Assembly: GCA_016764955.1 (NCBI GenBank)
Contig: JAESQZ010000056.1
Span: 1-45,610, forward strand
Origin: Deltaproteobacteria bacterium
Lineage (GTDB): Bacteria; Myxococcota; UBA727; JABDBI01
DNA length: 45,610 bases
Direction: 5' to 3'
This document shows positions 8,653-36,358 of this stretch, piece after piece. The notes under the pieces are model-generated. The model had not been told where the DNA came from. It was given only the letters and a program-made list of their open reading frames with translations, and did no database searches. Every line of letters starts with the position of its first letter. Position 1 is the first letter of the stretch. The translations under genes were made by a program, and so were the position numbers.

Positions 8653-8747
8653 AACATTACTAAAACATACTTGCTTATAATCCTTTAGTTTAAACTAACG
8701 TTAGTTATAGGTAATGCTTAATAATCATTCAATACCACACTAATCAT

Positions 8748-8818: not shown

Positions 8819-8859
8819 ACCGATAATTTTTATAAAAAATAGAAAAAAATTGTGCAAAA

Positions 8860-9896: not shown

Positions 9897-10051
9897 TTGT
9901 AAGTCACCATAATAGAAATATAATATCCTCGAATAGCTGGTTTGAAATTGAAAACTCCGTTTCGATTAAACCATGTGATTGATGTTCTCTTTTTTTGATA
10001 GAGTTTTCCAATAGATAAATAAAATCCAAATATTCTAATCCAAAAATTCAT
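9893..10051 (-). CDS. micro-ORF, 52 aa, hydrophobic N-terminus
   Basis: MNFWIRIFGFYLSIGKLYQKKRTSITWFNRNGVFNFKPAIRGYYISIMVTYK. TAATG overlap upstream and ATGA overlap downstream. Confidence 0.4.
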   Translation of the reverse strand: MNFWIRIFGFYLSIGKLYQKKRTSITWFNRNGVFNFKPAIRGYYISIMVTYK

Positions 10052-11808
10052 TATGGAAACATCTCCTCAGAAGCTTTGACTTGACCTTTAGATTCTGTAG
10101 CTAGACTCAAATCAATTAACATCTTTACACTTGAACTAAATCCTCCACTAGTAGGAGAATATCCTGTAGCCTCTGCAAGTTCAGGTCTAGTCAGAGAGTT
10201 TATCGGATCATAATAGATGTTACACAAAAAATCTAATACCTTAGATGAACATGCTCCAAGTTTATTCTTCCAATGATTTAGTAAATCTTCATGGTTTGTA
10301 GGAACAGGATCTAATCCTCCAGCTCTTTGAATTCCTGCAGGAGTAGGAGTAATTGTTCCATTTTCTTCTATGTATCCTGCATCTCTAAGATTTTTGATTG
10401 ATGTGCTGTAACCGCCTGAAGTTGGCCTATATCTTGAATAAACTGCAAGATGTTTTCTAGTCATGGGTTTGTTAAACTCTACTAATTTTTTCAAACAAGT
10501 TTCAGCACATTTGTTTAAAATAATTTCATCATCATTTAGAGATTCAACAGATACAGAATGTGATTGAAAATTATTCACAGTCCTTGGAATTATTCCCTCT
10601 TCTTGAATTTGGTTTGGTATAGTTGGTTTTTCTATCTTTGTTTCAATTGAAAGAGCTTTGTTAATTTCATTTACTGCATGATCACAAGTATCAAAGATTT
10701 CATTTTTGGATTTATTGATTTTAACAAAACCCATTTTTAGAATTTTAAGTAATGATCTCTTATCATGTAATTCTTGAACAGTTGAAATGAATTTTACTGT
10801 AGCCTCATCAAATCCTTTTTTGTATGCTCTGTTTAATTCTCCTGTATCTTGTTTAATTATGGGTTGATTCTTTTCAGATTGTCTAAGTTTTGTTTGTAGT
10901 TCTTGTATTTTTAATTGAAGCCCTTCCTTTGTTTTTAGATCCTGTTCTACTTCTAAATCCAATTCAGAGAAATTTGTTAATAATCCTGTGATTTTCTTTT
11001 TGTTTGCTGGAATGTATTCTTTAATATTTCCAAGCTCCTCATGAGATGTTTTAGTTTCATAAGCTTTGACTAGAACATTATCATCAGCAATTGCAGGACC
11101 AAAGGCATAGAATTCATGCTTTAGTTTTCTCAATATTTTAGTATCTTTAATTCCAAGTTCTTCTCCTGCTCTTTTTCTATCAATATCTAAGGCACATCTA
11201 CCAATGAATTTTGTGTTGAGTTCAGCAGCTACATCTTTGTTTAATTTTGAAATTCTCTGAGTGGCTCCAATTAATCCATAACCTCTTTTTCTTCCTCTGC
11301 TAGCCAAAGCTGCAACTGCAGCAAGTGATTCTGAACGTCCAGACTTTGATTCAGGAGCAAATATATGAATTTCATCAAGCCAAATGAGACATTGATGCCA
11401 TAGAGTTTTTGGAAGGTTAATCAGTGCCTCACAAAATAGTTTTACAAATCTAATCCTTTCAAATGGATTTAGTTCATACAAATCAATTATAACATCTGCA
11501 CCTGTCTCCATGATTCTTTTTGCCAATAATGCAGCATGTTTAGAATCAATTTGGATATCAGCTTGTGGTCCTTTACCAACAAGTAAGAAAGAATAGTGTT
11601 CTCGTAAAGTTGGAAATTCTCCTTCAGGATCAATAATTATTTGTTGAACTTTTCCATGAGCTTCTTCAATTCCTTTTCTCATGGCATGACTCTTTCCTCC
11701 TCCAGAATTTGCTTGGAGTAATGCTCTTGATTTTATTAGTTCTTGAAGATTTACAAGAATTGGTTTTTTCTTTTCTACATCTAAGAAAATTCGTAGCCAA
11801 TCAGTCAT
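10051..11808 (-). CDS. HerA/FtsK-superfamily P-loop ATPase with C-terminal tandem winged-helix repeats
   Basis: 585 aa. Walker A ANSGGGKSHA, Walker B LIWLDEIHIFAP, and RGRKRGYGLIGATQR typical of HerA/DUF87-like ATPases. Two C-terminal repeats: RPTSGGYSTSIKNLRDAGYI and SPTSGGFSSSVKMLIDLSL. Confidence 0.75.
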   Translation of the reverse strand: MTDWLRIFLDVEKKKPILVNLQELIKSRALLQANSGGGKSHAMRKGIEEAHGKVQQIIIDPEGEFPTLREHYSFLLVGKGPQADIQIDSKHAALLAKRIMETGADVIIDLYELNPFERIRFVKLFCEALINLPKTLWHQCLIWLDEIHIFAPESKSGRSESLAAVAALASRGRKRGYGLIGATQRISKLNKDVAAELNTKFIGRCALDIDRKRAGEELGIKDTKILRKLKHEFYAFGPAIADDNVLVKAYETKTSHEELGNIKEYIPANKKKITGLLTNFSELDLEVEQDLKTKEGLQLKIQELQTKLRQSEKNQPIIKQDTGELNRAYKKGFDEATVKFISTVQELHDKRSLLKILKMGFVKINKSKNEIFDTCDHAVNEINKALSIETKIEKPTIPNQIQEEGIIPRTVNNFQSHSVSVESLNDDEIILNKCAETCLKKLVEFNKPMTRKHLAVYSRYRPTSGGYSTSIKNLRDAGYIEENGTITPTPAGIQRAGGLDPVPTNHEDLLNHWKNKLGACSSKVLDFLCNIYYDPINSLTRPELAEATGYSPTSGGFSSSVKMLIDLSLATESKGQVKASEEMFP

Positions 11809-11978: not shown

Positions 11979-12172
11979 TATAGTTTCACTCCTAATTCAC
12001 TAGCTTTCCTAAATCCTGGACCATGAAATTTCCCTGAAGCTGGAACTTTACTAAATCCACAATTGGAGCATTTGTTGGTTATAATGTTGAAGGTTTTTCT
12101 TTCTGATAATCTGTATGATTTAGTTCTATGTTGAGTGCATCCAGTAGGGCAAAAAATTAAATTATCTTTCAT
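11978..12172 (-). CDS. zinc-ribbon protein
   Basis: 64 aa with CPTGC ... CSNCG. Confidence 0.6.
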   Translation of the reverse strand: MKDNLIFCPTGCTQHRTKSYRLSERKTFNIITNKCSNCGFSKVPASGKFHGPGFRKASELGVKL

Positions 12173-12597
12173 TGTGGTTTGACTCCTGCTTTTACTAGTG
12201 CATCAATGATATCATAGAAATCATCCCAAGTAATTTCATGTTCTTTTTTAGAATCTAGATAGAAAATTCCTTTTTTTCTACAATCATAATCATCAATTGT
12301 TATGTATTCATGTCCTGCAGCTCTAACCAACGGACCAAAAATAGTTCTAGCTTTGCGTGCTGCCTTTTCTCCATGTTTGTAATTTACTTCAATTACAATA
12401 TCTTTTCCATTGTTTCTTCTAAGGACTAAATCAAAATTATGATTTCTAACTTCTTGGTCTAGATGAATAAATTCTATAGGATCTATCATCCATTTGATAT
12501 TTACTTGAGATTCAATTCCTACACAGTCAATTAATCTAAGCATAATTTTTTTAGATAGATTTTCTCCTCTACCAATGAATCTAGAATTATCACTCAA
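12169..12597 (-). CDS. hypothetical protein, possible PD-(D/E)xK nuclease fold
   Basis: 142 aa with GRGENLSKKIM ... FDLVLRRNNGKDIVIEVNYKHG, read as a D...E..K-like pattern. Weak, by eye only. Confidence 0.55.
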   Translation of the reverse strand: MSDNSRFIGRGENLSKKIMLRLIDCVGIESQVNIKWMIDPIEFIHLDQEVRNHNFDLVLRRNNGKDIVIEVNYKHGEKAARKARTIFGPLVRAAGHEYITIDDYDCRKKGIFYLDSKKEHEITWDDFYDIIDALVKAGVKPQ

Positions 12598-12799
12598 TCT
12601 TATCAGCCTCCATGTGAATAATTTCAGTTAATTTTTTGCCATCTTGTTTAGAAACACAGTCAAGAATTAGTGAGATTAGTCCTGAGAGTGAGCCAATGCC
12701 CATAACGGAGAAATTCCTTTTTCTAGCTTGATGAAAGTCATGCCATTTGTCATATACAATATCTCCAATAGTTAGAGTAGTGAATCCAGGCTTAGGCAT
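12590..12799 (-). CDS. hypothetical protein
   Basis: 69-aa ORF on the coding strand. Confidence 0.55.
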   Translation of the reverse strand: MPKPGFTTLTIGDIVYDKWHDFHQARKRNFSVMGIGSLSGLISLILDCVSKQDGKKLTEIIHMEADKIE

Positions 12800-12882
12800 T
12801 ATTTTTCCTCCTCAAAATCGTCAAGAGTAGTTCCATCATGATCAGCATTATTGGTTTTTTTTCTCTTATCTAGAAAGCTCAT
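12799..12882 (-). CDS. micro-ORF, 27 aa
   Basis: MSFLDKRKKTNNADHDGTTLDDFEEEK. It exactly bridges two genes, with an ATGA overlap upstream and a TAATG overlap downstream. Confidence 0.3.
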   Translation of the reverse strand: MSFLDKRKKTNNADHDGTTLDDFEEEK

Positions 12883-14051
12883 TGTCCTTTCCTCACAATT
12901 TGATTGCCATGACAAAGAACTCCAGGAGTTTTTACTCTAGCGTATAGTTCAGCATAATTTCTTTTAGGATACATTTTCTTGATCATATGCCAAAGATCAG
13001 GTTTCTTGGAATGTTCAGATCTTAACTCTTCAATTATGCTAGAAAATAATTTTGCAGGAACAGGCATTTCTCCCTTGATAGCCATTAGGAGATTTTCATG
13101 TTGATTTCTATTCCAAGAACCTACTCCAATCTTTTTCTTATTCCAAACAAATTCCTGTTTTACTTTGAACCCTGCAGCATCTAAAACAGCTTTGTAGAAT
13201 GGAATTGGATATTTTACATCAATGGATTTATCTCCAACTAGTAAATTATCAATTTTAATTTCAACTTCTGAATATTGTATTGATGGACTCATCCAGAAAA
13301 ACATTATGGCATTATCAGCAGCAGCTAATTTGCTAAAGTCCTGAATGAGTTCATCAATTGTCATTGTAGGATAATGTGTTTCAGCAGCTCCTCTTCCTCC
13401 TTTGTCCTCATATCCATAAGGCACATCAGCTAGGAATACATCAGAAATTGTTTTTGGTAATGGAACCTTTGGAAGATTTCTATCTTTCCTGGTTAGTTGA
13501 GTGTGGAGAGTTGTGATTTTTGTTTCTCCAGTGTAGAGTTTTTTCTTTTGTTCAAGAGTAGCATTACTATGAATATGTAATGCTCTCTCAAAGGTTGTAG
13601 TAGACATGTCAGCTTCTTTAGCTGCTTTAGCTGTAGCTTTACCCTTAGCCTCTTTAGATGCTAAGGTTCCAGATTTTTGTCTGGATTCAGCTTGAACCAC
13701 TTCTTTTTCATAGGTAATTAGAGATGCTTCAAATTTTTGATATTTACTAAGATGTCTTCTCTTGAGATTCATTGAGTTGATGTAATCTATTTTTTCCACT
13801 TCAGAATCAAACTCCCATTGTTCGTATTTGATATCATCAATTCTTTGTTTACCTAGAATTTCATCTCTAGTGTATCCGTCAACTAGATTCCAATCCTCAT
13901 CAGCACAAACAGGTTTTAGTTGTCCTTTGGATTCCATGTCATCATACATTTTGTTAAAATCTTTTTGAGTAGGTCTAGGAGTTATTGATTTATACAAATC
14001 ATTATGAAGAATTTCAGAACGTGAGATAGTTCCTGATTTGATTAGTTTCAT
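12879..14051 (-). CDS. ParB-like nuclease domain fused to an MT-A70-family N6-adenine DNA methyltransferase
   Basis: 390 aa. The N-terminus has NLVDGYTRDEIL (ParB DGxxR-type). The C-terminus has ADVPYGY (a DPPW variant), HYPTMTIDEL, IMFFWMS, FVWNKKKIGVGSWNRNQHENLL. Confidence 0.8.
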   Translation of the reverse strand: MKLIKSGTISRSEILHNDLYKSITPRPTQKDFNKMYDDMESKGQLKPVCADEDWNLVDGYTRDEILGKQRIDDIKYEQWEFDSEVEKIDYINSMNLKRRHLSKYQKFEASLITYEKEVVQAESRQKSGTLASKEAKGKATAKAAKEADMSTTTFERALHIHSNATLEQKKKLYTGETKITTLHTQLTRKDRNLPKVPLPKTISDVFLADVPYGYEDKGGRGAAETHYPTMTIDELIQDFSKLAAADNAIMFFWMSPSIQYSEVEIKIDNLLVGDKSIDVKYPIPFYKAVLDAAGFKVKQEFVWNKKKIGVGSWNRNQHENLLMAIKGEMPVPAKLFSSIIEELRSEHSKKPDLWHMIKKMYPKRNYAELYARVKTPGVLCHGNQIVRKGQ

Positions 14052-21969: not shown

Positions 21970-23736
21970 CTAAGAATCAACTAGAACGTTATCTGTATCA
22001 GCTAGAGAAGTTCCTGAAGCATTAACCAAAACACATCTTACAGTGATTGAATCTCCTGGACTAAAAGCTCCTTCTCTAATTACCTCAACTTTGTTTTCTA
22101 ATGCATTTAGATCATCAGAGGGAGGTTGGTTTCTAGAATATGAATTGGCTATAGTTGTAGTTCCTGTATCATAAATTGTATCAAAATATTCCTGAACACT
22201 TGATTGTAATCTCCAAGTTACTAGAGCTATCTCATCTCTTGTAGGTGAATCAGGATAAGTAACTTTGATTCGGATTTGTCCTGTTGCTGGAGAAGTGACT
22301 GTTAGAGTTGGTTTAGATGGTGTAGATAGTGTTCCAGTGGTATCACTAACAATAGTCGAGAATGGTCCATTCACTTGATTTTTTAGAATTCTTGCATGTC
22401 CGTAAAATAATGTACTTTCAACTTGTGATTCAGTTTCAAAAATTACATTAGTTTGGCCTGTCACTCCAACAGGTCGAGTAATTTTTGTACTTCCTCCCTG
22501 ACCTGTAAAGCTCCCATTGCCATCTACTGCATTTGATAAATTCCATTCAACCTCAGCTATGTTAATTCCTGCCTCAAGTGTTACTGTAAATTTTAATTTA
22601 GTTCCTACATTCTCAAAAACTACTGTAGGAGCTGCAAGAGCTGAAGTTGTAGCACTAGCTAGTATTGTACTAATTAGAGTCCCAAATTCATTTCTGACTT
22701 CAAAAATATAATCATGTAATGTATTTGGAGGAAGAAAATCATCATCATACGTGTTTGTTACTCCCGAAGATGGAGTATCATCTTTCACTACAGTCTCTAA
22801 AGGAATTCCCAAGTCTCTAATCAAAGTGAACCGTAATTGTTTTCCAGTAGGTTGAGTCCATGAAGCCCTTATTGTGTTAAAATCAAGTGCTGTAACTGAG
22901 AATCCTACATCTCCTGCATTGTATGAACCATCAGTGTTAGTTTGGAGTGGTCCAATATAATCAGAATTGCCAACGTCATTTTTTGCCCTTACCCAAAAAT
23001 AGTATGTAGTTCCTGCAGATAATCCATTTACAGTAACTTTGGTATCAGTCAGATTTTTTGTTGCAGCATCAGTGATAGGAGTATCTGGAACTCCGTTAGT
23101 TTCTGCAGCAGAGAGAGAATATTCCACATCATAAGTTAATGGAAGACTACCTATTGCTGAAGGATCCCATAAGATATCTATTGTAGTATCAGTGTGTCCA
23201 GATGAGACAACGTTTAGAGGAATAGTTGGAGCTAGCTCAGATTCATCGTTTTTTTTTGTAGTTCCAATGTTGATAGTAGATTGGTCTGTACTCCAAAATG
23301 ATATGTCAAGAAAATCATTAACTGCAGTAACTATCAAAGGACTACTTCCAATTCCTGAAACTATGGTTCCTCCAAGTGTAATGATTGGATCAGTTGAGCG
23401 AATGTGTAATCGTATAGTACATAATAGTAATGTTGGAATGTGTGCAAATGTTATAGTTGTATTTCCATCTACATTCCCTGTAAGTTGTCTATCACTGTGA
23501 ATTCCAAAATCAATTACTAGAGGATTTGTAATATCTCCAAGTTCTGAAATTTTTAATGGATTTGGATTTATGTTTGGAGATCCTCCGTCTACTGATTCAC
23601 TTCCAGAGCTTCCTATTCCTCTTGCAGATTCTGATCCTCCTATTTTTAATGATTCAAGTAAATCTCGATTGTTTTTCTTTTGGAATTTTATGATTCTTGA
23701 TTCGGTATTTGTTTGTCTAGTAGCTCGAGTTGACAA
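21970..23736 (-). CDS. tail fibre/adhesin with fibronectin type III-like domains
   Basis: 588 aa, TTG start. FN3 pattern at residues 169-264 (TIDILWDPS...TYDVEYS...LSAGTTYYFWVRAKNDVGNSDY), then a second similar unit (IRASWTQP...HDYIFEVRNEFG). Confidence 0.6.
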   Translation of the reverse strand: MSTRATRQTNTESRIIKFQKKNNRDLLESLKIGGSESARGIGSSGSESVDGGSPNINPNPLKISELGDITNPLVIDFGIHSDRQLTGNVDGNTTITFAHIPTLLLCTIRLHIRSTDPIITLGGTIVSGIGSSPLIVTAVNDFLDISFWSTDQSTINIGTTKKNDESELAPTIPLNVVSSGHTDTTIDILWDPSAIGSLPLTYDVEYSLSAAETNGVPDTPITDAATKNLTDTKVTVNGLSAGTTYYFWVRAKNDVGNSDYIGPLQTNTDGSYNAGDVGFSVTALDFNTIRASWTQPTGKQLRFTLIRDLGIPLETVVKDDTPSSGVTNTYDDDFLPPNTLHDYIFEVRNEFGTLISTILASATTSALAAPTVVFENVGTKLKFTVTLEAGINIAEVEWNLSNAVDGNGSFTGQGGSTKITRPVGVTGQTNVIFETESQVESTLFYGHARILKNQVNGPFSTIVSDTTGTLSTPSKPTLTVTSPATGQIRIKVTYPDSPTRDEIALVTWRLQSSVQEYFDTIYDTGTTTIANSYSRNQPPSDDLNALENKVEVIREGAFSPGDSITVRCVLVNASGTSLADTDNVLVDS

Positions 23737-23774: not shown

Positions 23775-24272
23775 ATAAAGCCTGTTAGGATATTTATCTA
23801 AAAATATTTTATAACATTGAGGATCTTCTTGTGCTGTTTCTTTAGACATTACACCTCCAAGTTGATAGTTCCTTAATTCAGGAGTGGTTTTTTTGTCAAG
23901 AGAATCAAAATAATCAATAAAGATGGATGCTCTATAACCATCATCAAGCCAATCTCCATTACTAGCAGCGTTCAAAAAGGATTCACGTTCTTCTGAAAAA
24001 TTATCTAAATACCATTGAGAAGGATTTGGTTGTTCATACTCTATTCTCTGAACAAGATACACATCACAAACAGAATCAATAGGCCAAGTATTTGTAACAA
24101 AATTCAAAGTAGATGTATCAAATTCAATAGATTCAGAGATTGATTCATCTACATTAGTAAACAAAACAACTCCTACAATTACAGCTATAATTAGAGGGAT
24201 TGAAGCTAGTTTCATGTTCATGCTCAAAATCAAGCGATCTAATAGAAAAACAATGCTATTCAACTGGACCAT
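23769..24272 (-). CDS. membrane-anchored protein
   Basis: 167 aa with N-terminal TM ASIPLIIAVIVGVVLF. Overlaps the upstream gene by 13 nt. Confidence 0.6.
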   Translation of the reverse strand: MVQLNSIVFLLDRLILSMNMKLASIPLIIAVIVGVVLFTNVDESISESIEFDTSTLNFVTNTWPIDSVCDVYLVQRIEYEQPNPSQWYLDNFSEERESFLNAASNGDWLDDGYRASIFIDYFDSLDKKTTPELRNYQLGGVMSKETAQEDPQCYKIFLDKYPNRLYG

Positions 24273-27200
24273 ACTCTATTAATCAAATGTTCAGTTTGTC
24301 TAAACCCTCCAGGAGCTCCATCGCCTCCTTTTGAGATAGAAATGAAATTGTTATCTACAACCATTTTGATAGTGTTTGCCTTCCCATCAGTTGTATCATC
24401 TACAGCTTCTGAATCTTCATAATATACTGAATCACCCCAACCCACATCATTAGAAAATTTCTTTACAATTGGGAATTCATCTTTTTCATGATTTAGTATT
24501 GGAACCAAATTTCTAACTAGATTTTTAGCTTGAGAGTATGATACAACATCAGGAGCTGAGATTAATTCACTAGGAATATTTCTATCAGGTTTGTTATTTT
24601 CATCATCCACGTTAGTAACTACAAGAGGTTTTGTTAATCTAAAGCCATCAATTGAAAGTGTTAGTTCTGATGAACCTGTAAATCTTGATAAATTGAGAGG
24701 GTTTGGATCAGTCAAAAAAGTTCTGAATCGGTCATCTTGATCAAATGATTCAGCAGTTTCAATTCCTCCTCGTCTTACTTTTTCAAAGTCAAATATTTCT
24801 AAAACTTCAGGCTCATTGGCTCGAATAAAAGTAGATATTCCTGGAACTGAATGTTGAATCTTTCTTTTTCCGAGTGAAGCTGTTAATGGAGTTGCAGAAC
24901 CTCTTTTCTTTTGTAGATAATCAATTGTTATTTTATTATCATTCTCATCTACTAGCCAAATTAGCATTTTATAATTTCCAGTAGGTCGAGGAAGTAAACC
25001 TAGAAAAACTTCATCAATTTTTTGGAAAAATGCAAATCCTTGAATGTCCATATAATCCTCAACTCCTGGACCAAACCATTCCTTTTTCCCCAAGTGTGTT
25101 TTGTGTTTGTTTAGAAAATCAATTACAGATAGAGAAATTTTTTCTCCAATAGTTACAGTATTGTAAGGAATAAAATTCTCATTTCTTGGCATCATTGCAG
25201 TCCAATTGAGTCCTGCAATTTTTTTAGAATCTGCTGTATCAGGTTCAAATTGGATAAACACTGCTGAATTAGAATCTACATCATCTTCTGAAATTTTTGA
25301 ATTTCCAACTGCAACTCGTCCAGCACCTACATCAAATTTCACAGGATGAACACAGTCAAATTGTCCGTTAGCTTGGAATACTGCTGCTGCACCTATGATA
25401 GTATAAGCACCTAATGACCAAACTCCAGATCTAGCTCCAGTACAAGTTCCATCAAGATTCAATCCAGTAAGACAATGATTGTATGTCCAAGAATCACCTT
25501 TTTCATAATCATACACCTCATCATCATTTGTTGCTGCTCCCCAATGCTCCAGGACAAACCACACTCCAGTAGTTCCCAATCCTTGAGGATCTCTAAACAC
25601 TGCAATTGTATTATCAAAGATTAATCCATTATCATCAATTGCAGCAAAGTCATTTAGTCCCACTCCATTAACTAGAATTCTTAATCCGTCAATTGGATAT
25701 CTTGTTCCTCCAATCAATTTTTTCAGGTGTACTGGAATGGATGCAGAGTCAAGATACACTCCATCTACATCAGTTCTAGGATGGTTTTTGTCTTTGATAA
25801 TACTATTATGATCAATGTAGGCAGTCTTTCCATTGTTTGTATTTGCATCAACATAGCCTCCAAGTGCATTAATCCAATACTGAGCGTTGCCTTTAGTTTG
25901 TGGAGAGTAGTCTGTAGTTGGAACAAAATTAATTCTAACCCAAAATGAATCATTGGCAGGCTTGTTTCCTGAAGATGAAGTGTGAGATTGTAATGCTTCA
26001 TAGGCAATGTCTCCAACTTTGATAATATCATAAATTGTGTATGATGTAGCAGTTACCCAATCAACAGCTTTTGTAAAAAATCTTTGAATCCATAGTGTAG
26101 TAGCTACTGATGGGTTTTGTCCTGCAGTGGAGGAATGATCAGATTTTGCCTCATAAGTTAAATTGTTATGTTTTAGTAAAATTCCTTTCAGATAGGATTT
26201 GTCTTGTTCCCAAAGTTTAGTTAATCTAAATGCATCTTTAGCTCCTTGAAATTTAGCATACGCATTTCCAAGAAAATCTCCAGAATTTTTATCACAAATT
26301 ACTATAATGTTTGTAGCCTCTTCAGGTTCTTCGTTTGAATCAAGTTCCAAAGTGTTTGATGTGTAATCATTTAATGCTGATTTTTTTAGTGTTACATTTG
26401 GAGTGCTAGTAAATGCTTCAGTAGGACTAGCTGTCAATGTAATTTCTGGAGGAGTAGTATATCCAGTTCCAGGAGTATCTACTGTAATTGATGTTACTTT
26501 TCCTCCAGTCAATACAGCAGTAGCAGCAGCTCCAGTTCCCCTTCCTAGAATAGTTACTGCAGGAGCAGAGGAATATCCTTCTCCCCCATTTACTACTTTG
26601 ATTGATGCTAATGCACCTGATGAAACCTTGGAAATTGCTCTAGATGTGTGGAGATTATCTTGAAATCCCTGCTCTGCAATTTGTATCACACAGTTATCCA
26701 AATCAAGGCCTGTAGCGTGATTATACAGAGACTGGAATCTCCAATAATGAAATTCTCTACTTCCTCCTAGTTCTGGAACGTTTCCCTCAATGTCTACTAT
26801 ACTATCCATAAAATCCTCAAATGGAATAGCTTCTGCTATGTAATTGTTTGAGAGTCTATCATTTAGTCTACTGCCATGTTTTTTTAATTTGTTAAATGTT
26901 GCAGGAAAAACAATTTCAGGATCTTTTGTTCCTTTATTTTCAGGACTGTTAATTTGATTCACTGCATTAATTGCAGCTTCTTCTCCTGAGATTCTTCTGT
27001 TAGGAGTTGATATTGATACAATTGCTTTGAGTCGATTTGATGTTTGATGAGGACACCACAAAGTTAATTGTAATCCATTTTTCCTATCTTTCTTTTTTAT
27101 TCTTACATGAACTACAGTTTTGAATTGTCGTCCAGATTTGCTAGTAGTTTCAATATAGATACGGTCCCATTTTTTTATTTTTGCATGTTTTGTAATGTAT

Positions 27201-27301
27201 TTTCCTCTAGGAGCATTTAGAATAATTTTAATTGCAATTGGAGATGTGTCATTAATTTCTACAACTTTACAATCATCACTAATATCAAAATCTCCATTCA
27301 C
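24260..27301 (-). CDS. large tail-tip/baseplate adhesin with CBM5/12-like repeats
   Basis: 1013 aa, GTG start preceded by GGAG. Residues 239-290 hold GGEGYSSAPAVTILGRGTGAAATA and GTGYTTPPEITLT. Residues 364-454 hold two W..Y..GD..Y.A...H...G..P....W units typical of CBM5/12 carbohydrate-binding modules. Confidence 0.6.
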   Translation of the reverse strand: MNGDFDISDDCKVVEINDTSPIAIKIILNAPRGKYITKHAKIKKWDRIYIETTSKSGRQFKTVVHVRIKKKDRKNGLQLTLWCPHQTSNRLKAIVSISTPNRRISGEEAAINAVNQINSPENKGTKDPEIVFPATFNKLKKHGSRLNDRLSNNYIAEAIPFEDFMDSIVDIEGNVPELGGSREFHYWRFQSLYNHATGLDLDNCVIQIAEQGFQDNLHTSRAISKVSSGALASIKVVNGGEGYSSAPAVTILGRGTGAAATAVLTGGKVTSITVDTPGTGYTTPPEITLTASPTEAFTSTPNVTLKKSALNDYTSNTLELDSNEEPEEATNIIVICDKNSGDFLGNAYAKFQGAKDAFRLTKLWEQDKSYLKGILLKHNNLTYEAKSDHSSTAGQNPSVATTLWIQRFFTKAVDWVTATSYTIYDIIKVGDIAYEALQSHTSSSGNKPANDSFWVRINFVPTTDYSPQTKGNAQYWINALGGYVDANTNNGKTAYIDHNSIIKDKNHPRTDVDGVYLDSASIPVHLKKLIGGTRYPIDGLRILVNGVGLNDFAAIDDNGLIFDNTIAVFRDPQGLGTTGVWFVLEHWGAATNDDEVYDYEKGDSWTYNHCLTGLNLDGTCTGARSGVWSLGAYTIIGAAAVFQANGQFDCVHPVKFDVGAGRVAVGNSKISEDDVDSNSAVFIQFEPDTADSKKIAGLNWTAMMPRNENFIPYNTVTIGEKISLSVIDFLNKHKTHLGKKEWFGPGVEDYMDIQGFAFFQKIDEVFLGLLPRPTGNYKMLIWLVDENDNKITIDYLQKKRGSATPLTASLGKRKIQHSVPGISTFIRANEPEVLEIFDFEKVRRGGIETAESFDQDDRFRTFLTDPNPLNLSRFTGSSELTLSIDGFRLTKPLVVTNVDDENNKPDRNIPSELISAPDVVSYSQAKNLVRNLVPILNHEKDEFPIVKKFSNDVGWGDSVYYEDSEAVDDTTDGKANTIKMVVDNNFISISKGGDGAPGGFRQTEHLINRVWSS

Positions 27302-27897: not shown

Positions 27898-28502
27898 TAG
27901 TTTACATTTTTCCTTATCTTGAAATCATTTTCTAGAAGTTTTCGGTCACTTTCAAACACTTCAAAAGAGTTGTATTGGTTTCTAACGTTAAGATCTCCAT
28001 CAATTGTAGAAATAATTAATTGATCAAAGCCTTGCAAAATTCTTTGAAGTTTATCTTTATCTCGTAATGCATCAGTTCTGTTATCGATTCTATCATCAAA
28101 GAATCGGTCAAGCAAATTTCCTTCTTGTTGTAAAAATTCAATTACTTTGGCTGCGACTACAGGAGCTCCTATAATTGCTGCAGGAAGAGCTCCAGTTTTT
28201 AATAATTCTTGTAAGATTGCACCTGATGGATTAGTTGCATAGTTGAGTAAATTTTGACCTTTTCTAAATCCTAAATCATTTTTTAATACTTCATCTATCT
28301 TTGATTGTTTTTCTGATTTTTTCTTTTTTCCTTTTTTGGTTCCAGTTGTTGTTCCTGTTTGAGTAGAACTAGATTCTTCTATAACATCTGATTTGTCAAT
28401 AATTTCTTTAACTTCTTCTTTTACTTTCTCTACAATTTTTTCAATCTCTTTGACATTTTCTACTCCAGTAGTAGAAACATCAAGAGGGATTCTAACAGTC
28501 AT
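27897..28502 (-). CDS. short tape-measure-like protein candidate
   Basis: 201 aa. N-terminal coiled coil, a T/K-rich linker (TGTKKGKKKKSEK) and a hydrophobic segment GALPAAIIGAPVVAAKVI. Assigned by position and composition only. Confidence 0.45.
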   Translation of the reverse strand: MTVRIPLDVSTTGVENVKEIEKIVEKVKEEVKEIIDKSDVIEESSSTQTGTTTGTKKGKKKKSEKQSKIDEVLKNDLGFRKGQNLLNYATNPSGAILQELLKTGALPAAIIGAPVVAAKVIEFLQQEGNLLDRFFDDRIDNRTDALRDKDKLQRILQGFDQLIISTIDGDLNVRNQYNSFEVFESDRKLLENDFKIRKNVN

Positions 28503-29026
28503 TGAATAGAGTTCTCCTGGAGGAATCGGTTAATTTTACTAGTTAGTACATCAAGAAATCTTTCTAATCCAAATTTGAAACCATTTGACATTATTTTCAT
28601 GGCTCTAATTCCCTTAACCCAATGGCCTTTTGAGAATCCAGTTACAGTAATTGCTCCAGATTGAATAGGGAAAGCTAGAACTCCATCAGGATCTAGAGGT
28701 TCAATAAAGTGAGTAACTGTTCCATCTTCAAAATAATCAGCTAGAGGAACTACACTGCCTAAAGCATCCTTTGAGGGTTTGGAATAATCATTAATCACAT
28801 CACCTTTGAGAAATCCATTTTTCTCAAATGATATGGCATCAAGATAACCTTGTTTCATTCCTGCTGCACGAGCTACAGTTTTACATGATTCTAGAATTGT
28901 CTCCTGTACTGTTTCAATCATTATAGAATCAGCGAATTCCTCAACTCTAATTTTAGCAGAACCTAAACGCATCTCTGCAAATTCTAGCTGTAATTCTAAC
29001 TTGCCTAGTAAAATTTCAAGTTGCAT
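28499..29026 (-). CDS. structural module protein
   Basis: The track start at 29059 overlaps the upstream gene by 32 nt. An in-frame ATG at 29026 lies just after the upstream TGA. 175 aa. Confidence 0.55.
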   Translation of the reverse strand: MQLEILLGKLELQLEFAEMRLGSAKIRVEEFADSIMIETVQETILESCKTVARAAGMKQGYLDAISFEKNGFLKGDVINDYSKPSKDALGSVVPLADYFEDGTVTHFIEPLDPDGVLAFPIQSGAITVTGFSKGHWVKGIRAMKIMSNGFKFGLERFLDVLTSKINRFLQENSIQ

Positions 29027-29027
29027 A

Positions 29028-29462
29028 TCATGTAACTGTAACGTCTCTCTGAGTTGCACGAATTCTGCATGTAATTATTTGAGCTCCTGGAACTACATTT
29101 TGTTTGTCAATAATTGGAATCTTTCCAGTAAAGGTCATTGTAGCTCCAGTTGATACTCCTGCTTCATCTGTTCCCTTGATTACCCAAGTTTTGTTTGAGA
29201 GTGCAGCTTGAAATCCGTGCAGTACAGCTAGTTCCAATCTTGTTACTGCCATTTTAAAATCTACAAAATTATTATGATTCTTTGAATACACATAGACTGA
29301 TCCTGATTTTGTTTGAATTACAGACTCTACTCTTTCCCAATGTTCAGTTATATCTTGAGCTGCTGCAAAGAATTTAGTATCTGCTCCGTCAATATATCCA
29401 AGTTTTACCTCTTCAGAATTAAAAATATCATTAACAATGTTTCCTAGTTCTACATCAGCCAT
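29028..29462 (-). CDS. major tail (tube) protein candidate
   Basis: 144 aa and beta-rich. Its size and position after the connector-type genes are consistent with a siphovirus tube protein. I read no diagnostic motif. Confidence 0.4.
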   Translation of the reverse strand: MADVELGNIVNDIFNSEEVKLGYIDGADTKFFAAAQDITEHWERVESVIQTKSGSVYVYSKNHNNFVDFKMAVTRLELAVLHGFQAALSNKTWVIKGTDEAGVSTGATMTFTGKIPIIDKQNVVPGAQIITCRIRATQRDVTVT

Positions 29463-30002: not shown

Positions 30003-30563
30003 TTATTGCACCCAGAATATTGATCTATCCCTTGTTGTAAATCCATCACCATTAGTTAGTACAACTCTAGCTCCATATTCCCAAGGACCATGTACATCTA
30101 AGATAGATGATTCAGGATCAGTATTTTGATAAACTATTTTTTTCTCTCCTTGAGTAGTTACTGTTCCAGAATTTTCAGCAGATACAGAACCTACAGAACC
30201 TAATTGATACGTAAATGTTGTAGCAGTTACTATGGTAATTGGTTTGTTTGTTACATTAAAATTTGAAGTTCCAGTGATTGACATGAGTTCTCCAGTTTTT
30301 AATAATGCAGTGTTTGGAACAGTTACTGTAATTTTATCCTCAATTCCATCTCCAACTATATTTGATAGTGAGATAGCTTGTGAAGGATTAACAGAGTCAA
30401 CTTCCAAATTTGCTTGTTTTTCAAATGTTGTTCCATCAGGTTTTAGAAATGTAATGAACTGATCAGAAATCAGACTCAAATTAAAATCTGCTTTTGATGT
30501 TGATATTTTCAGCTTTACAGGAAATGTAGCGTTGAGATGATTTAGGGAATAATATTTTACCAC
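30003..30563 (-). CDS. beta-rich virion protein
   Basis: 186 aa, GTG start, S/T/N/V-rich, Ig-like composition. Confidence 0.55.
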   Translation of the reverse strand: MVKYYSLNHLNATFPVKLKISTSKADFNLSLISDQFITFLKPDGTTFEKQANLEVDSVNPSQAISLSNIVGDGIEDKITVTVPNTALLKTGELMSITGTSNFNVTNKPITIVTATTFTYQLGSVGSVSAENSGTVTTQGEKKIVYQNTDPESSILDVHGPWEYGARVVLTNGDGFTTRDRSIFWVQ

Positions 30564-30611: not shown

Positions 30612-32816
30612 TTATTCATCAGAATCAAAAGTTATAGAGAAATCAGATTCAGAGTCTAATGAAATCTCCAGATTTGCAGTGTCATCTATTGTAGTAGATA
30701 ATTCAACTTCCTCCACTGTGATTCTAGTAGGTAAAATTCTGAGAAGTGCTGCAACCTCTACTAGATGGTTGATTTCTGATTTTAGTTTGATTCGTAATCG
30801 TGTGATTAATGAGGATTCAGATAGATGAGTGATTTCACTAACTACTTTAACGAATCCTGTAAGTTGGTTTGATGATTCTATAAAGTCTAAAATCTCTGAT
30901 TTTAGTCGTGTTAATCCCAATGATGGAATGATTGACTCTGAGATGTGGTTGATTTCTGATTTGATTTTAGCTATTCCAATTGGATTATTTGTAGATTCCA
31001 CGAAATCAAGGAGTTCATTAGATAATTTACTAAATGCACGTAATGGATTAGCAGATTCTGTCAAATCAAGGAGTTCTGATGATATTCGTCTTAACCCCAC
31101 TGATGGAATAATTGACTCTGAGATGTGGTTGATTTCTGATTTGATTCTCAGTAAACTTCTAGATACAACATTAGATTCTATTAGATGGTTAATTTCTGAT
31201 TTGATTCTAGTTAGAGTTCTAGTAATTATAGAATCTTCTGAGAAATCCAAGAATTCGTCATTCACTTTAACAAATCCTCTAAGTGGATTTGATGATTCAA
31301 TAAAATCTAAAATTTCTGATTTTAGTTTACTGAAGGATTTTACATGAATGGTATTTTCAGCTAGATGGTTGATTTCTGATTTTAATCTACTGAAAGACTT
31401 TACATGAATGGTTGATTCCACTAGGTGATTAATTTCAGCTTTTAATCTGATTAGAGTTCTAGTAGTGATTGTAGATTCAGCTAGATCAAGTAATTCATTT
31501 TTAATTCTACTAAATGATTTTAGATAATTTCTAGATTCAACAAAGTGTAACATCTCAGCTTTGATTCTAGATACTCCAATTGTGTTAAGGGATGATTCAG
31601 AAATATGATTAATTTCACTAGATATTGCAACAAATCCTTTTTGAATAACTGCGGATTCTATGAGTTGTAGAGTTTCTACTACTTTGGTTAAAACTCCATT
31701 AGCTTGTTCAGCTAAATCAAGAATTTCTGATTGAACTTTTGCAATTATTATTTTTGCAGATGATGATTCTGATAGGTCCAGTAATTCATTATTATTTTTT
31801 ACTTGTCCTGGAACATTGATTTTGGATTCTGAAATATCATTAATTTCAGATTTGATTCTAGTTAGAGTTCTAGTGATAATGGATAATTCTGTAAAGTGAA
31901 GTACTTCATTTTTAATTCTGCTAAAGGATTTTAGATAATTTGATATTTCAGATAAATCAAGGGATTCAGATTTAATTTTGATAATTAGCGTATCAACTAG
32001 TAGTTTTAGTGAAGACTCTACTACATCAAGGGACTCACTAATATTTTGAATACTTTGTCTTTGGAATAATTTTGATTCTGAAATGTCTAGTAATTCATTT
32101 GATATTGCCAATCTTGCACGATGAGCAATTGCACCCTCTAGAACAACCAAAGACTCCATAACTTGAGTTAGAGTGCCATTTGCTGATTCTGTTAGGTCTA
32201 ACAATTCGGATTTTAGCCTAGTTAAACCTCGAGCTACTACTCCACCCTCTACGAATTCTAGAATTTCATTTTTGAATCTAGTGAGTCCTAATGATGAAAC
32301 AGATGAATCTACTAAATCATTAATTTCTGATTTTATAATATTGATAACTGAAATGGATAGTTTTGATTCAGGAATTTCCACTGATTCAGATTTTAATCGT
32401 GTTAGTGTTCTTGTATGGATAGTTGATTCTACAAATTCTAAAATATTATTTCCAAATCTGCTAAATGATTTTACATAGTTTGATGATTCTACAAATTCTA
32501 AAATTTCGGATTTTAATCGAGTGCGTAATCTAGTGATAATATTTGATTCAGAAATGTCTAGAAATTCTCCTGTAATTATTCTTACTCCAAATCTTGCTAC
32601 TGCACCTTCTATAATTTCAAGGGCTTCTAAAACTGCTGTAACAACTCCGTTAGCTTGTTCTGGAAAATCTAATATTTCATTTGAGACTTTGACAAATCCC
32701 TTTTGAGATATTGCACCCACTACTATTTCTAATGATTCAAAAACTTTTGCAAGAACTCCGTTAACTTGTTCTGAAAAATCTAAGCTTTCGCTAGTTACTT
32801 TTACTATTGCTGCCAA
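30612..32816 (-). CDS. fibrous protein built from about 30 or more copies of a 20-aa repeat
   Basis: 734 aa, TTG start. Repeat unit resembles R-[IL]-K-S-E-I-[NL]-[HD]-[LFI]-x-E-S-x6-[FL]-[ST]. The DNA shows a 60-bp period: 30921-30967 versus 31101-31147 match at 46 of 47 positions, exactly 180 bp apart. Confidence 0.7.
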   Translation of the reverse strand: MAAIVKVTSESLDFSEQVNGVLAKVFESLEIVVGAISQKGFVKVSNEILDFPEQANGVVTAVLEALEIIEGAVARFGVRIITGEFLDISESNIITRLRTRLKSEILEFVESSNYVKSFSRFGNNILEFVESTIHTRTLTRLKSESVEIPESKLSISVINIIKSEINDLVDSSVSSLGLTRFKNEILEFVEGGVVARGLTRLKSELLDLTESANGTLTQVMESLVVLEGAIAHRARLAISNELLDISESKLFQRQSIQNISESLDVVESSLKLLVDTLIIKIKSESLDLSEISNYLKSFSRIKNEVLHFTELSIITRTLTRIKSEINDISESKINVPGQVKNNNELLDLSESSSAKIIIAKVQSEILDLAEQANGVLTKVVETLQLIESAVIQKGFVAISSEINHISESSLNTIGVSRIKAEMLHFVESRNYLKSFSRIKNELLDLAESTITTRTLIRLKAEINHLVESTIHVKSFSRLKSEINHLAENTIHVKSFSKLKSEILDFIESSNPLRGFVKVNDEFLDFSEDSIITRTLTRIKSEINHLIESNVVSRSLLRIKSEINHISESIIPSVGLRRISSELLDLTESANPLRAFSKLSNELLDFVESTNNPIGIAKIKSEINHISESIIPSLGLTRLKSEILDFIESSNQLTGFVKVVSEITHLSESSLITRLRIKLKSEINHLVEVAALLRILPTRITVEEVELSTTIDDTANLEISLDSESDFSITFDSDE

Positions 32817-32855: not shown

Positions 32856-33176
32856 TTAAAGTAAATCATTTGTAAAATCAGCATCAGAATCTGCAAAGGT
32901 TTCTCCACGTTTTAGCTTGCCTGTATTATCTAATGCAGGAGATTTGCCAATTACAAATGTTTCAGGAGGATTAACATCTGATTGTTTTTTCATAATCATT
33001 GTATAAAATTTATCAGGAATATTTTGAATCATAGTTTTGTATCTCTCAGCTTGATCATCAGTTACCATAAAATCAAAGCCTGCAGTAGGCACTACATTGT
33101 CTGCAGTCTTTTTCTGAAATAGTTTAATCTCTACTTTGGTCATTAGTCCGATTTGATCTGTAAATGTTATTTTCAT
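32856..33176 (-). CDS. hypothetical structural-module protein
   Basis: 106-aa ORF on the coding strand. Confidence 0.55.
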   Translation of the reverse strand: MKITFTDQIGLMTKVEIKLFQKKTADNVVPTAGFDFMVTDDQAERYKTMIQNIPDKFYTMIMKKQSDVNPPETFVIGKSPALDNTGKLKRGETFADSDADFTNDLL

Positions 33177-33267: not shown

Positions 33268-33621
33268 TCATTTTTGTTTCAACTCACACAAATTTCCACA
33301 CTGACACATTCTAAGAACTATTTTCCTTCCCTTGATGATGTTTAATCTAGAGATGAATCCCTCCTTATGGATTCTTTGTGTCCCTGATGAATGACATTTT
33401 TCACATTTCCACACTGATAAATTAATGTAGAGATAGCATTTCAGGCAGTATCTTTGTAGTGGGAAATTAGGATTGTTTTGTAAATGTTGAATTATTCCAA
33501 AGTGAGTTCCATGATTACACCTTGAACAGTATCGAGGATTCATTATGTCAATTACAATGTAAGTCATACCAAGACAAACCAATGATAATAATTCCAGTAT
33601 TGTAAAATTCAGTAAATCCAA
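33268..33621 (-). CDS. membrane-anchored zinc-finger protein
   Basis: 117 aa with N-terminal TM LLSLVCLGMTYIVIDI, then CSRC, CLKC, CEKC and CQC clusters. Confidence 0.55.
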   Translation of the reverse strand: MDLLNFTILELLSLVCLGMTYIVIDIMNPRYCSRCNHGTHFGIIQHLQNNPNFPLQRYCLKCYLYINLSVWKCEKCHSSGTQRIHKEGFISRLNIIKGRKIVLRMCQCGNLCELKQK

Positions 33622-33622
33622 T

Positions 33623-34102
33623 TTAATCAGTACTCAATGCTGAAATATTGGAATCTACTCCATAATCTCCTGATTGGTCGTTGATGTTATCTATTCTTGT
33701 AATGCCTGCATCTGGACTAGGAACAAACTTTGCCACCATTTCTCCACGATTAGGAGCATTTGCAGATCCTATTGTTCCACCAAGTATTCTATCTGCCATC
33801 ATTAATTTTTCTTCACCTGAAATACTACAAACATATTGAACTTCAAACTTGTCATTTGCATAAGCAAGTGGTTCATCAATAATGGTTTGAGAAACTTGTG
33901 TACCATCTCCACCTCCATTTGAGGCATTTCTTTGAGCATATACAGAATTAGAGTTGTTATTGTATCTAATCGAATGACTGATATTTCCAGAAGCAATACT
34001 ATGAATTAAAAACATGTTGAACTTTTTTGCAGTTAAATCTGTTATTTGCATTACATCACCAGCTACAGTTAAAGTAACAGTTTCATTTTTAGCCCAGCCC
34101 AT
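33623..34102 (-). CDS. single-copy member of a triplicated beta-rich domain family
   Basis: 159 aa with VYAQRNASNGGGDGT ... GSANAPNRGEMVAKFV. It parallels both halves of 34102..35169. Confidence 0.6.
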   Translation of the reverse strand: MGWAKNETVTLTVAGDVMQITDLTAKKFNMFLIHSIASGNISHSIRYNNNSNSVYAQRNASNGGGDGTQVSQTIIDEPLAYANDKFEVQYVCSISGEEKLMMADRILGGTIGSANAPNRGEMVAKFVPSPDAGITRIDNINDQSGDYGVDSNISALSTD

Positions 34103-35169
34103 TAGTCAAAACCCCACACTTTACCAATTGAGCCAGCAGCAAAATCTCCTGCTTCATCGTTATAGATAATTACTCTATCTGCTTGACTTACAGCATTAGC
34201 CCATTTCCCTACAAATTCAGAACGTTGTGGAGCATTAGCTGCTCCTGCTCCGCCTTGGTCCATCCAATTCCCTGTTACAAGTTTTTCATGTGTAGCATTA
34301 TTTACAATAAAGAAATTCTGAAATTGTGGTACTATTGATGCCAAGTTCTGTGAATTAATAAAATCTAAATTTGTGTTTAGTTGTTCTGCACTATTATTTT
34401 GACTCCTTCTATTTGCATAATTAGTTCCTGTATCTTCACTTCCAGCACCCATTCTAATATTTGGTCTTGCACGTCCACCTGTTGGATTTATCCAGCATTT
34501 AACCCATAGATATTTTTTAGCTGTAAATGGTAAAGTTATTTTATCTGCAGTTGCACCTAATTCAACACTTGCTAATTCCTCCCAGGAATTATTAGTATGT
34601 ACATCTGCTGGGTCCCATCCCAGAACAACAACTTGTGAACCTGTTGCAAAATTCCCTGCGGAGACATTAGCATCTAGATAATTAACCTCATCTAAGGGGT
34701 CTACTGTATTTGCCCATTTGCCAGCAATCTCATATCGTGTTGGTGCAATTCCAGCACCTGTACCACCTCTATTAGTGACCATGTGCATATGGAGTAATTT
34801 TTCCACTGCTGCTAAATTAGATAAATAAAATACTTGGAACCACTGATCTCCTGTACCACCTAATGTATCTGTAAATATACTCGATATGCCTGTTGTAGTT
34901 CCATCAGCACCCCCATCTTGTGAAAATCTTCTTGCATAATTATTACCAATATCTGAATTAAATCTAGGAGTAGGCATAGGGTTTGTTGTATTTAGTAAAT
35001 GATGTGCCAAAATCATATAGTATCTTTTATTAGGTAAACTTGAAACGTCGATATTATCTCCTGGACTTCCTAAAGTACCTCTACCCAGTTCAACCCATCC
35101 ACCTACTGCAGAAGGTAATTGAGAAACTAGTGTTCGAATGTCTGGAGCAACCTTAACTAAATTTACCAT
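34102..35169 (-). CDS. two-copy member of the same beta-rich domain family (fibre or decoration candidate)
   Basis: 355 aa with an internal duplication: NYARRFSQDGGADGT...GAGIAPTRYEIAGKWAN and NYANRRSQNNSAEQ...GAANAPQRSEFVGKWAN. Confidence 0.65.
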   Translation of the reverse strand: MVNLVKVAPDIRTLVSQLPSAVGGWVELGRGTLGSPGDNIDVSSLPNKRYYMILAHHLLNTTNPMPTPRFNSDIGNNYARRFSQDGGADGTTTGISSIFTDTLGGTGDQWFQVFYLSNLAAVEKLLHMHMVTNRGGTGAGIAPTRYEIAGKWANTVDPLDEVNYLDANVSAGNFATGSQVVVLGWDPADVHTNNSWEELASVELGATADKITLPFTAKKYLWVKCWINPTGGRARPNIRMGAGSEDTGTNYANRRSQNNSAEQLNTNLDFINSQNLASIVPQFQNFFIVNNATHEKLVTGNWMDQGGAGAANAPQRSEFVGKWANAVSQADRVIIYNDEAGDFAAGSIGKVWGFD

Positions 35170-35764: not shown

Positions 35765-36358
35765 TTAGACTCTCCTCATTTCGTGATTGATGAAGAACTT
35801 TAGGGTGTCAGTTGCAGTCTTGTTAAAGGGTGTGATTTGTCCATGTGTTAGTAATTTTGATGCATTAACTGGAGTTCCATTATCTAAAATTGCAAAGTTT
35901 TTGATTGTAACTCCTCCATCATTAAAGTCACCAGTTGTATAACTAGTGAGAAATGATAGAATATCCACTCCAGAGCCTGTATTATCACCATCTGCATCAT
36001 TCCTATTAGGATAAGTTGCATCATACACTTTGTTTGAGCCAGCTATTGCTTTTGCAGTATTATCGAATTGCAGCCAGGTGTCAGTTGCAGCAATTGCAGT
36101 TTGAACAGCAGGATTTGCTAGCTGCATCCTGCTTGCTGCTGGTGCAAAAAAGTCTTCATTTACTACAGGAGCTTCACTTGCTCCCTCTTGAGCATAAGCA
36201 ATTTCACCATCATTGGTGATTTGGTTCATTCCAATAATCCATTTTTTAGCAGTTGCTGTTCTCTTTTTGATCAAGTCTAGTTTGAATGATAGTGGTAAGT
36301 CAGGTCTGATGAAATATTTTAATTTCTGCATTGCTGAATATTTTGGGTCAACATGCAT
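35765..36358 (-). CDS. virion structural protein candidate
   Basis: 197 aa, located in the connector/neck region. Confidence 0.55.
   Translation of the reverse strand: MHVDPKYSAMQKLKYFIRPDLPLSFKLDLIKKRTATAKKWIIGMNQITNDGEIAYAQEGASEAPVVNEDFFAPAASRMQLANPAVQTAIAATDTWLQFDNTAKAIAGSNKVYDATYPNRNDADGDNTGSGVDILSFLTSYTTGDFNDGGVTIKNFAILDNGTPVNASKLLTHGQITPFNKTATDTLKFFINHEMRRV

Follow-up and report, generated by a model that had tools for sequence, protein, structure and literature searches.

A 20-residue repeat protein encoded beside LamG-like genes: a candidate fibre stalk of a tailed archaeal virus

The 45,610-nucleotide contig JAESQZ010000056.1, deposited in assembly GCA_016764955.1 as part of a Deltaproteobacteria bacterium and referred to here as the window, encodes on its minus strand a 734-residue protein, REP, that is built almost entirely from copies of one 20-residue unit. 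What does such a protein do, and to what kind of genome does it belong? We read REP as the beta-structured stalk of a fibre or adhesin on the virion of a tailed archaeal virus, probably one of Nitrosopumilus; the stalk would present LamG domains or act together with them. We put the probability of this reading at about 0.55. The reading starts from direct observations of the repeat and its family, of the domains fused to it in relatives, of a lectin-type fold modelled for the products of two neighbouring genes, of beta-type periodicity in the repeat, of separate tape-measure genes in relatives, and of synteny with a contig from a Nitrosopumilus genome bin.

The repeat protein and its family

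The REP open reading frame (ORF) is genuine. The features of the gene that matter for what follows are these:

30612..32816, minus strand: REP coding sequence, 734 residues, TTG start, stop codon at 30612-30614; backed by the ORF listing, the homologue P0001 and the profile matches described below
30726..32816, minus strand: repeat region, residues 1-697, with 35 E-x5-E cores
32580..32801, minus strand: two 37-residue variant units, residues 6-79 (6-42 and 43-79), of the form ...E-Q-x-N-G-V-x-x-x-V-x-E-x-L-E-x-x-x-G-A
32109..32219, minus strand: third 37-residue variant unit, residues 200-236
31629..31739, minus strand: fourth 37-residue variant unit, residues 360-396
30729..31628, minus strand: uninterrupted run of 15 units of 20 residues, all in perfect register (residues 397-696)
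31089..31148, minus strand: unit 557-576, partner of unit 617-636 in a near-identical pair
30909..30968, minus strand: unit 617-636, which with unit 557-576 forms the most similar pair in the gene (55/60 nucleotides, 92%)
30615..30725, minus strand: acidic, non-repeat C-terminal tail, residues 698-734

An initial annotation, made from the sequence alone, had described the protein as nearly all 20-residue repeat with a 60-bp period in the DNA, and comparison of the gene with itself agrees. The self-identity of the protein is highest at an offset of 20 (0.29) and at multiples of 20, and that of the DNA at an offset of 60 (0.47, compared with 0.28-0.31 at other offsets). Its further description of a core recurring about every 20 residues from the N-terminus to about residue 690, and of an acidic tail beyond the repeats, also holds: the 35 cores lie between residues 6 and 696, and their spacing is mostly 20, with 17 occurring four times and 23 once. 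The longer variant that it listed is real as well, but it measures 37 residues, not 40. In each of its four copies a normal unit comes after a truncated one, which has 17 residues and ends in EQANG. The codon-periodic repeat also accounts for two plus-strand ORFs inside REP (30829..31347 and 32173..32478), which are its shadow frames and recur in the related locus L001.

At the DNA level most REP units are old and diverged, since only three unit pairs reach at least 80% identity and the median pair identity is 50%. Recent duplication or conversion is confined to short local tracts. One of these is the pair exactly 180 bp apart noted in the initial annotation (30921-30967 and 31101-31147), which matches at 45 of 47 positions rather than the 46 first counted; the second pair that it placed at an offset of 60 bp is present around 32424-32445, with 20-22 identical bases. 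Its proposal of recent expansion holds for such tracts; ongoing homogenisation, which it offered as the alternative, has weak support from these unit identities.

Curated libraries gave no family for the repeat. Against Pfam and PHROGs, REP returned only sub-threshold noise; the phage tail fibre repeat PF03406, for example, reached an E-value of 0.17 and 12 bits, under its cut-off of 22. PDB sequences searched with REP and with a repeat profile yielded no match, and neither did tblastn searches of 50,697 GenBank phage records with REP, the repeat proteins P0010 and P0007, the 355-residue protein encoded upstream of REP and the conserved neighbour C0, although a terminase query used as a positive control worked. 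A locus search of IMG/VR with REP, P0007 and P0010 as queries was likewise negative. A word-indexed protein search with the single REP sequence found one homologue, the 1170-residue P0001 (E 2.7e-64), which begins with an N-terminal domain and carries a pair of Laminin_G_3 domains ahead of about 22 units of the REP repeat.

A profile of 60 columns, corresponding to three units, was then far more productive. An exhaustive search of 1.84 billion representative proteins returned 308 matches at E<=1e-3, 171 at <=1e-10 and 50 at <=1e-30, each of these metagenome matches being a protein cluster at 50% identity. Some 30 true REP members were also recovered from IMG/VR viral contigs of 32-69% G+C with a loose degenerate DNA pattern, whose mostly chance matches were removed with a hidden Markov model (HMM). 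The consensus over 2064 units is [RK]1-h-h-[NDS]4-E5-[TS]-h7-p-h9-x-E11-x-h-h-[RK]15-h-[RL]-G18-h-h, where h is hydrophobic and p is polar; E5 and E11 are near-invariant and position 1 is Arg or Lys in 85% of units. Relatives carry 3-36 units (median 12), in line with the variation in repeat number that the initial annotation had anticipated, and end in a C-terminal tail with a family median of about 47 residues. Their non-repeat N-terminal region has a median length of 372 residues and exceeds 150 residues in 94%, which makes REP, an almost pure stalk, atypical of its family. When 53 members were searched against Pfam, Laminin_G_3 was found in nine and DUF2341 in two, and no model covered the repeat. 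PHROGs gave scattered matches to the relatives, among them families named virion structural protein and tail protein. A search of the literature found no description of a 20-residue repeat with the R/E/E signature. Judged by these sequence searches, the repeat is widespread, abundant and phylogenetically broad, and is missing from the curated libraries that were searched; the earlier statement that it matches no known repeat family is borne out by the Pfam, PHROGs, PDB and GenBank phage searches, and the Pfam search of 53 members brought up no repeat family either.

Structure of the repeat unit and of the LamG-like neighbours

Eight units of REP (residues 537-696) were modelled with AlphaFold2 from a 58-row alignment of in-register family segments. 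The model is all beta without helix (pLDDT 65.7, pTM 0.56). Independent evidence in the sequences points the same way. Hydrophobic and polar residues alternate at positions 5-11; turn-type residues occupy positions 4 (Asn or Asp in 50%), 12 and 18 (Gly in 39%); positions 4 and 10, which flank the 5-residue core, accept proline; the hydrophobic moment peaks at 160-180 degrees and not at 100; and residues i and i+2 covary over positions 12-20. Because the model and these sequence features agree, we consider the unit to be beta-forming and probably to represent one rung of a solenoid-like rod. Mutual information was also tried as a contact map and set aside as uninformative on the fold, being dominated by couplings between units. 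These other strong couplings connect the same position in different units with equal strength one or two units apart, and therefore reflect concerted evolution within each protein rather than contacts.

The genes around REP are all on the minus strand, and those that bear on its role are the following:

35765..36358, minus strand: C0, a conserved 197-residue protein, 84% identical to its L001 counterpart and 71% to that of the Nitrosopumilus bin
34102..35169, minus strand: 355-residue protein with two predicted LamG/ConA-like beta-sandwich domains (AlphaFold and Foldseek), with homologues upstream of REP in other loci
33623..34102, minus strand: 159-residue, single-domain paralogue of the 355-residue protein
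33268..33621, minus strand: Cys-rich 117-residue protein between the lectin genes and REP, 52% identical to its L172 counterpart
32856..33176, minus strand: 106-residue ORF (from the ORF listing) directly upstream of REP
30003..30563, minus strand: 186-residue ORF directly downstream of REP; its positional counterpart in the Nitrosopumilus-bin contig shares 66% identity

In order of transcription, genes for proteins of 447 and 375 residues, C0, and proteins of 116, 71, 355, 159, 117 (Cys-rich) and 106 residues precede REP, which is followed by genes for proteins of 186, 167, 144, 186, 201, 174, 1013 and 588 residues.

The AlphaFold model of the 355-residue protein, calculated from an 82-row alignment, is of good quality (pLDDT 87) and shows two beta-sandwiches behind a disordered N-terminal stretch of 20 residues. 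Foldseek placed it with the LG domain pairs of laminin (LG4-5), Gas6 and neurexin at E-values from 5e-7 to 1e-4 and probabilities up to 0.99. Its matches in a viral structure library are many proteins of uncultured Caudovirales and one protein of Methanobacterium phage psiM2, and a few of these viral matches are named as tail-fibre or side-tail-fibre-repeat proteins. More than 1862 homologues of the 355-residue protein were found, all unnamed and many from marine surveys, and they fall into two size classes of about 355 and about 500 residues. The 159-residue protein belongs to the same family according to the C13 HMM (E 1.3e-67) and BLAST matches to paralogue arrays in L171 and L172. Pfam sequence searches with either protein found no match; the LamG/ConA-like fold of both is assigned by structural modelling, and binding of a carbohydrate or other ligand would be their predicted activity. 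Since LamG domains are fused to the repeat in relatives and encoded by separate, adjacent genes in the window, we suggest that REP and the LamG-like proteins act together, with the 355-residue protein as the likely lectin partner of REP. The presence of a DUF87/HerA-type ATPase elsewhere in the window had prompted another interpretation of the 355- and 159-residue proteins, as a double and single jelly-roll capsid pair. It was rejected because the fold matches LG domains, because the family forms arrays of 4-10 paralogues and because the pair follows tail genes elsewhere.

Two observations on the LamG-like family may be recorded here. Single contigs (L171, L172, L173 and L174) contain tandem arrays of 4-10 paralogues with one, two or three domains, and these look like an arsenal of multiple receptor-binding proteins. 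In addition, the disordered N-terminal residues of the 355-residue protein, about 20 in number (window positions 35110-35169), contain the motif LVKVAPDxxTLVSQ, which is shared with an otherwise unrelated 400-residue protein at the same position in L001 (812-880) and resembles the [IV][IV]KV start of REP repeat blocks. This segment may be a common docking peptide.

Gene neighbourhoods and host

Because relatives of REP occur in many viral contigs, their surroundings can be compared with those in the window. REP is co-directional with conserved viral genes, and its relatives lie beside genes for terminase, portal, tape-measure and tail-fibre proteins. Homologues of the 355-residue protein stand directly upstream of REP in L041, L072 and L091, and in L171 an array of five lectin paralogues leads directly into a 310-residue REP member. 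In L172 the array of lectin genes and the Cys-rich gene are kept, as are counterparts of the 144-, 186- and 1013-residue proteins, but an fn3 protein stands in the REP slot; the position of REP therefore behaves as a variable cassette between conserved flanks. Downstream of REP in contigs of the L072 type come small genes and the gene of a large terminase (phrog_2, E 1e-44), whose best GenBank relative is that of the archaeal Halogranum tailed virus 1. In L074, genes for a tape measure (phrog_58, E 1.5e-41), minor tail proteins and tail-fibre-like proteins come before REP, and in L006 REP adjoins a tail-fibre protein (phrog_21412, E 1e-61). The order in L112 is portal, C0 and REP, with a tape measure encoded separately, and in L055 it is portal, virion structural protein (phrog_1645), C0 and REP. 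REP ends the structural block in L010, L039, L043, L060 and L089. On the 70-kb contig that encodes P0216, Phage_tube_2 and PhageMin_Tail genes precede a lectin pair of 355 and 160 residues that resembles the pair of the window, and this puts the pair in the tail-fibre position.

Homologues of C0 accompany REP genes, either adjacent or close by, in 14 of about 30 viral loci, spanning 32-62% G+C, and stand immediately downstream in five. No relative of C0 was found in Pfam, PHROGs or the PDB. It might anchor REP, act as its chaperone or be one of its structural partners.

Within the window, searches of the REP-flanking ORFs against Pfam and PHROGs gave almost no matches. The initial annotation had counted a putative tube gene among the neighbours, and this assignment was not confirmed, as no flanking ORF falls into any Pfam or PHROG family. 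Downstream of REP, a tail module is hinted at only by the 1013-residue protein (24260-27301, minus strand), which combines CBM_5_12 modules with a segment common to baseplate-wedge and fibre PHROGs, and by the 588-residue protein (21970-23736, minus strand), which has an fn3 domain and weak similarity to tail-tip protein J. The Cys-rich 117-residue protein contains many CxxC pairs and appears zinc-ribbon-like; in L172 its gene comes after the lectin paralogue array.

The host was approached by scanning 185,579 cellular genomes with a stricter DNA pattern. Among the 49 stretches obtained, the only convincing cellular member was on the 341-kb contig CBDFGF010000005.1 of a Nitrosopumilus genome bin. 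Stretches from Ruminococcaceae, Shewanella (an acidic repeat in FtsY) and Paramesorhizobium were discarded as low-complexity false positives. Comparison of two slices of the Nitrosopumilus-bin contig (loci L156 and L141) with the window revealed synteny over eight genes at 27-71% identity: C0 at 71%, the next two genes at 65% and 57%, the 375- and 447-residue genes at 27-32%, REP itself at 38%, the downstream 186-residue gene at 66% and the ORF at 28499..29059 at 34%. The REP homologue of the bin also has a similar acidic C-terminal tail. Given this synteny and a G+C content of 31-37% in the window, the source of the window is likely a Nitrosopumilus virus or provirus.

Several observations lie outside this argument. 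The window encodes non-structural proteins at 9219-14051 (minus strand), namely a PAPS-reductase-like protein, the DUF87/HerA-type ATPase (10051..11808) and an MT-A70 methyltransferase, and the PAPS-reductase-like protein also occurs in the REP-bearing contigs L010, L048 and L089. A tRNA-Phe (GAA) at 8747-8821 is on the plus strand, opposite to every neighbouring ORF of at least 90 residues, and may be either a viral tRNA or what is left of an attachment site. Finally, contig CAVOVM010000003.1 of a soil Nitrososphaerota bin (L150, L154) carries several very long open frames that together point to one giant protein. Its N-terminal region is LamG-like, and it also contains Ig-like regions and, by the dozen, 20-residue repeats that hardly differ from one another, SSLTEDLSLADSTTTNSSKT. 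The repeats are rich in Ser and Thr and of low complexity, and they match the REP profile at E-values of 1e-21 to 1e-27. The protein may be a cellular relative of REP or a convergent low-complexity match.

A fibre stalk, its rivals and known systems

How might REP work as a stalk? Each 20-residue unit would form short beta strands at positions 19-3, 5-9 and 13-17, separated by the turn-prone positions 4, 12 and 18. The 35 units could stack into a rigid, beta-solenoid-like rod of about 15-17 nm, with the hydrophobic positions 2/3, 7, 9, 14, 16 and 19/20 forming its core and the near-invariant R/K1, E5 and E11 running along it as charge ladders. Attachment to the virion would be through the short C-terminal tail, and LamG-type lectin domains would bind glycans of the host surface such as those of the S-layer; relatives carry these domains as an N-terminal fusion, and here they would be supplied by the separate 355- and 159-residue proteins. 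Recombination between the 60-bp DNA repeats might alter the number of units and with it the reach of the fibre.

Several points weigh against this picture. The repeat model is of low confidence (pLDDT 66, pTM 0.56), the other four models were much worse, and a Foldseek search of it against the PDB gave no significant match (E >= 0.08, TM <= 0.49); its top non-significant neighbours were beta-helices and solenoids (tapirin, PL3 pectate lyase, ice-binding proteins and FapC). REP does not have the N-terminal globular domain found in 94% of its relatives. The usual polarity of phage fibres, with a conserved N-terminal anchor and a variable C-terminal tip, is reversed in the REP family. Terminase, portal, capsid and tail genes of the window are not recognisable by Pfam or PHROGs, so that attachment to head, neck or tail cannot be told apart here, and in the window, L055 and L112 REP lies nearer to portal- or capsid-type genes than to tail genes. 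The host assignment is based on one binned metagenomic contig. We infer the solenoid fold, the oligomeric state, the end that anchors, the location in the virion and the ligand.

The point of attachment is where the closest alternative differs. REP could be a head or neck fibre or a capsid decoration, comparable to the gp8.5 head fibres of phi29, to T4 Hoc or to collar whiskers, which would be a sub-case of the fibre reading. In T4 Hoc the variable N-terminal domains are distal and the C-terminus binds the virion, and a REP family with distal, variable N-terminal domains and a virion-binding C-terminus would share this polarity. The module in the window follows putative portal and capsid-size genes and precedes small conserved genes, and the orders in L055 and L112 place REP after portal and C0. 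However, REP is found among tail-tip and tail-fibre genes in L074 and L006 and at the end of the structural block in the five contigs named above, the lectin pair of the P0216 contig comes after the tape measure, and Pfam and PHROGs recognised no capsid gene in the window. We regard attachment to the head or neck as somewhat unlikely. That REP is not part of the virion at all, and is instead an adhesin, on the surface or secreted, that the provirus expresses as a moron, or else a surface protein of cellular type that the virus carries, seems decidedly improbable to us. The giant LamG-like protein of the Nitrososphaerota bin, with its match to the REP profile, and the location of the closest genomic relative in a 341-kb contig of a cellular bin would suit such a role; but REP is co-directional within a gene block conserved among viral contigs, about 30 members sit on IMG/VR viral contigs beside virion genes, and the match of the Ser/Thr-rich soil protein may be convergent.

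Two further alternatives concern the nature of the rod and are affected by the structural evidence. An alpha-helical coiled coil or helix-loop fibre, as in fibritin or the helix-turn-helix supercoil of phi29, would be compatible with the many glutamates, which favour helix, and with Chou-Fasman averages over the unit that are near-equal for helix (1.08) and strand (1.05). It is nonetheless very unlikely, as the AlphaFold model lacks helix, the hydrophobic periodicity is that of strands rather than 100 degrees, REP has no heptad pattern, proline is accepted on both sides of the core, and no PDB sequence match to fibritin or gp8.5 was found. The same model, moment and proline tolerance, along with the i/i+2 couplings, speak against the helix-plus-loop unit of the initial annotation. 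That annotation had also offered a fibre, a head or neck appendage and a length-determining protein as possible roles, of which a fibre or appendage is retained as the best reading. A tape measure whose repeat number sets the dimensions of tail or capsid would account for the length and high periodicity of REP, and no tape measure was recognised in the window. Yet such proteins are alpha-helical whereas REP is predicted to be all beta, REP matches no Pfam or PHROG tape-measure family (PF10145, phrog_58 and others), the REP-bearing loci L074 and L112 encode a separate tape measure, and the range of 3-36 units and the lectin domains of relatives would be needless for an internal ruler. We find this role scarcely credible.

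A bolder version of the beta-structured stalk can be formulated, in which the repeat is a new class of beta-solenoid rung with an R1/E5/E11 ladder and serves as a modular docking rod, not a passive stalk, to which lectin proteins are added by beta-strand augmentation; the shared N-terminal motif LVKVAPDxxTLVSQ is one hint of this. We consider it unlikely in this specific form. If it were true, viruses that infect ammonia-oxidising archaea might build a "lectin brush", multivalent and open to swapping, that targets the glycans of the S-layer. More generally, the repeat is linked to lectin-type host-recognition modules, and one of its members is placed in a probable virus of Nitrosopumilus, a genus of globally important nitrifiers. 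We know of no experimentally characterised adsorption apparatus of a tailed virus of Nitrosopumilus. REP, the LamG-like proteins and C0 are concrete targets for annotation and structural studies, and for predicting host range in marine viromes.

Comparison with known systems helps to place the repeat. Like tape measures (PF10145 and PHROGs), REP is a long, repetitive protein of a virion module, but tape measures are helical and share no sequence similarity with it. Pentapeptide repeats also use 20 residues per turn of a beta-helix; REP, in contrast, has neither a 5-residue sub-period nor the A(D/N)LXX motif nor a Pfam match, and its unit is a single 20-mer with distinct positions. Parallel beta-helices and beta-solenoids such as PL3 pectate lyase, tapirins, ice-binding proteins and FapC resemble the predicted rod in having about 20-22 residues per coil, three short strands and turns rich in Asn and Asp, whereas REP carries no catalytic or ice-binding motif, and the matches that suggest this likeness are non-significant and come from a low-confidence model. 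Phage and viral fibre shafts made of short beta repeats include the triple beta-spiral of adenovirus and reovirus and the triple beta-helix of the T4 gp5/gp12 type. They differ from REP in period (15 or 8 residues rather than 20), in the R/K1-E5-E11 signature of REP and in the absence of any sequence or structure match, and the binding domain of the REP family is N-terminal or separately encoded. The likenesses are a long array of short beta repeats with hydrophobic positions and a Gly-rich turn, a link to a globular binding domain, and a copy number that varies between relatives. As to that binding domain, REP itself has no lectin domain, and the lectins of the window are separate polypeptides that Pfam does not match; ConA-like lectin domains of the Laminin_G_3 type (PF13385), as in phage fibres and adhesins, are nevertheless joined to the repeat in 9 of the 53 relatives, and the 355- and 159-residue proteins are predicted to share their fold. 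In kind, then, the arrangement is already known: fibres with short beta repeats and lectin tips.

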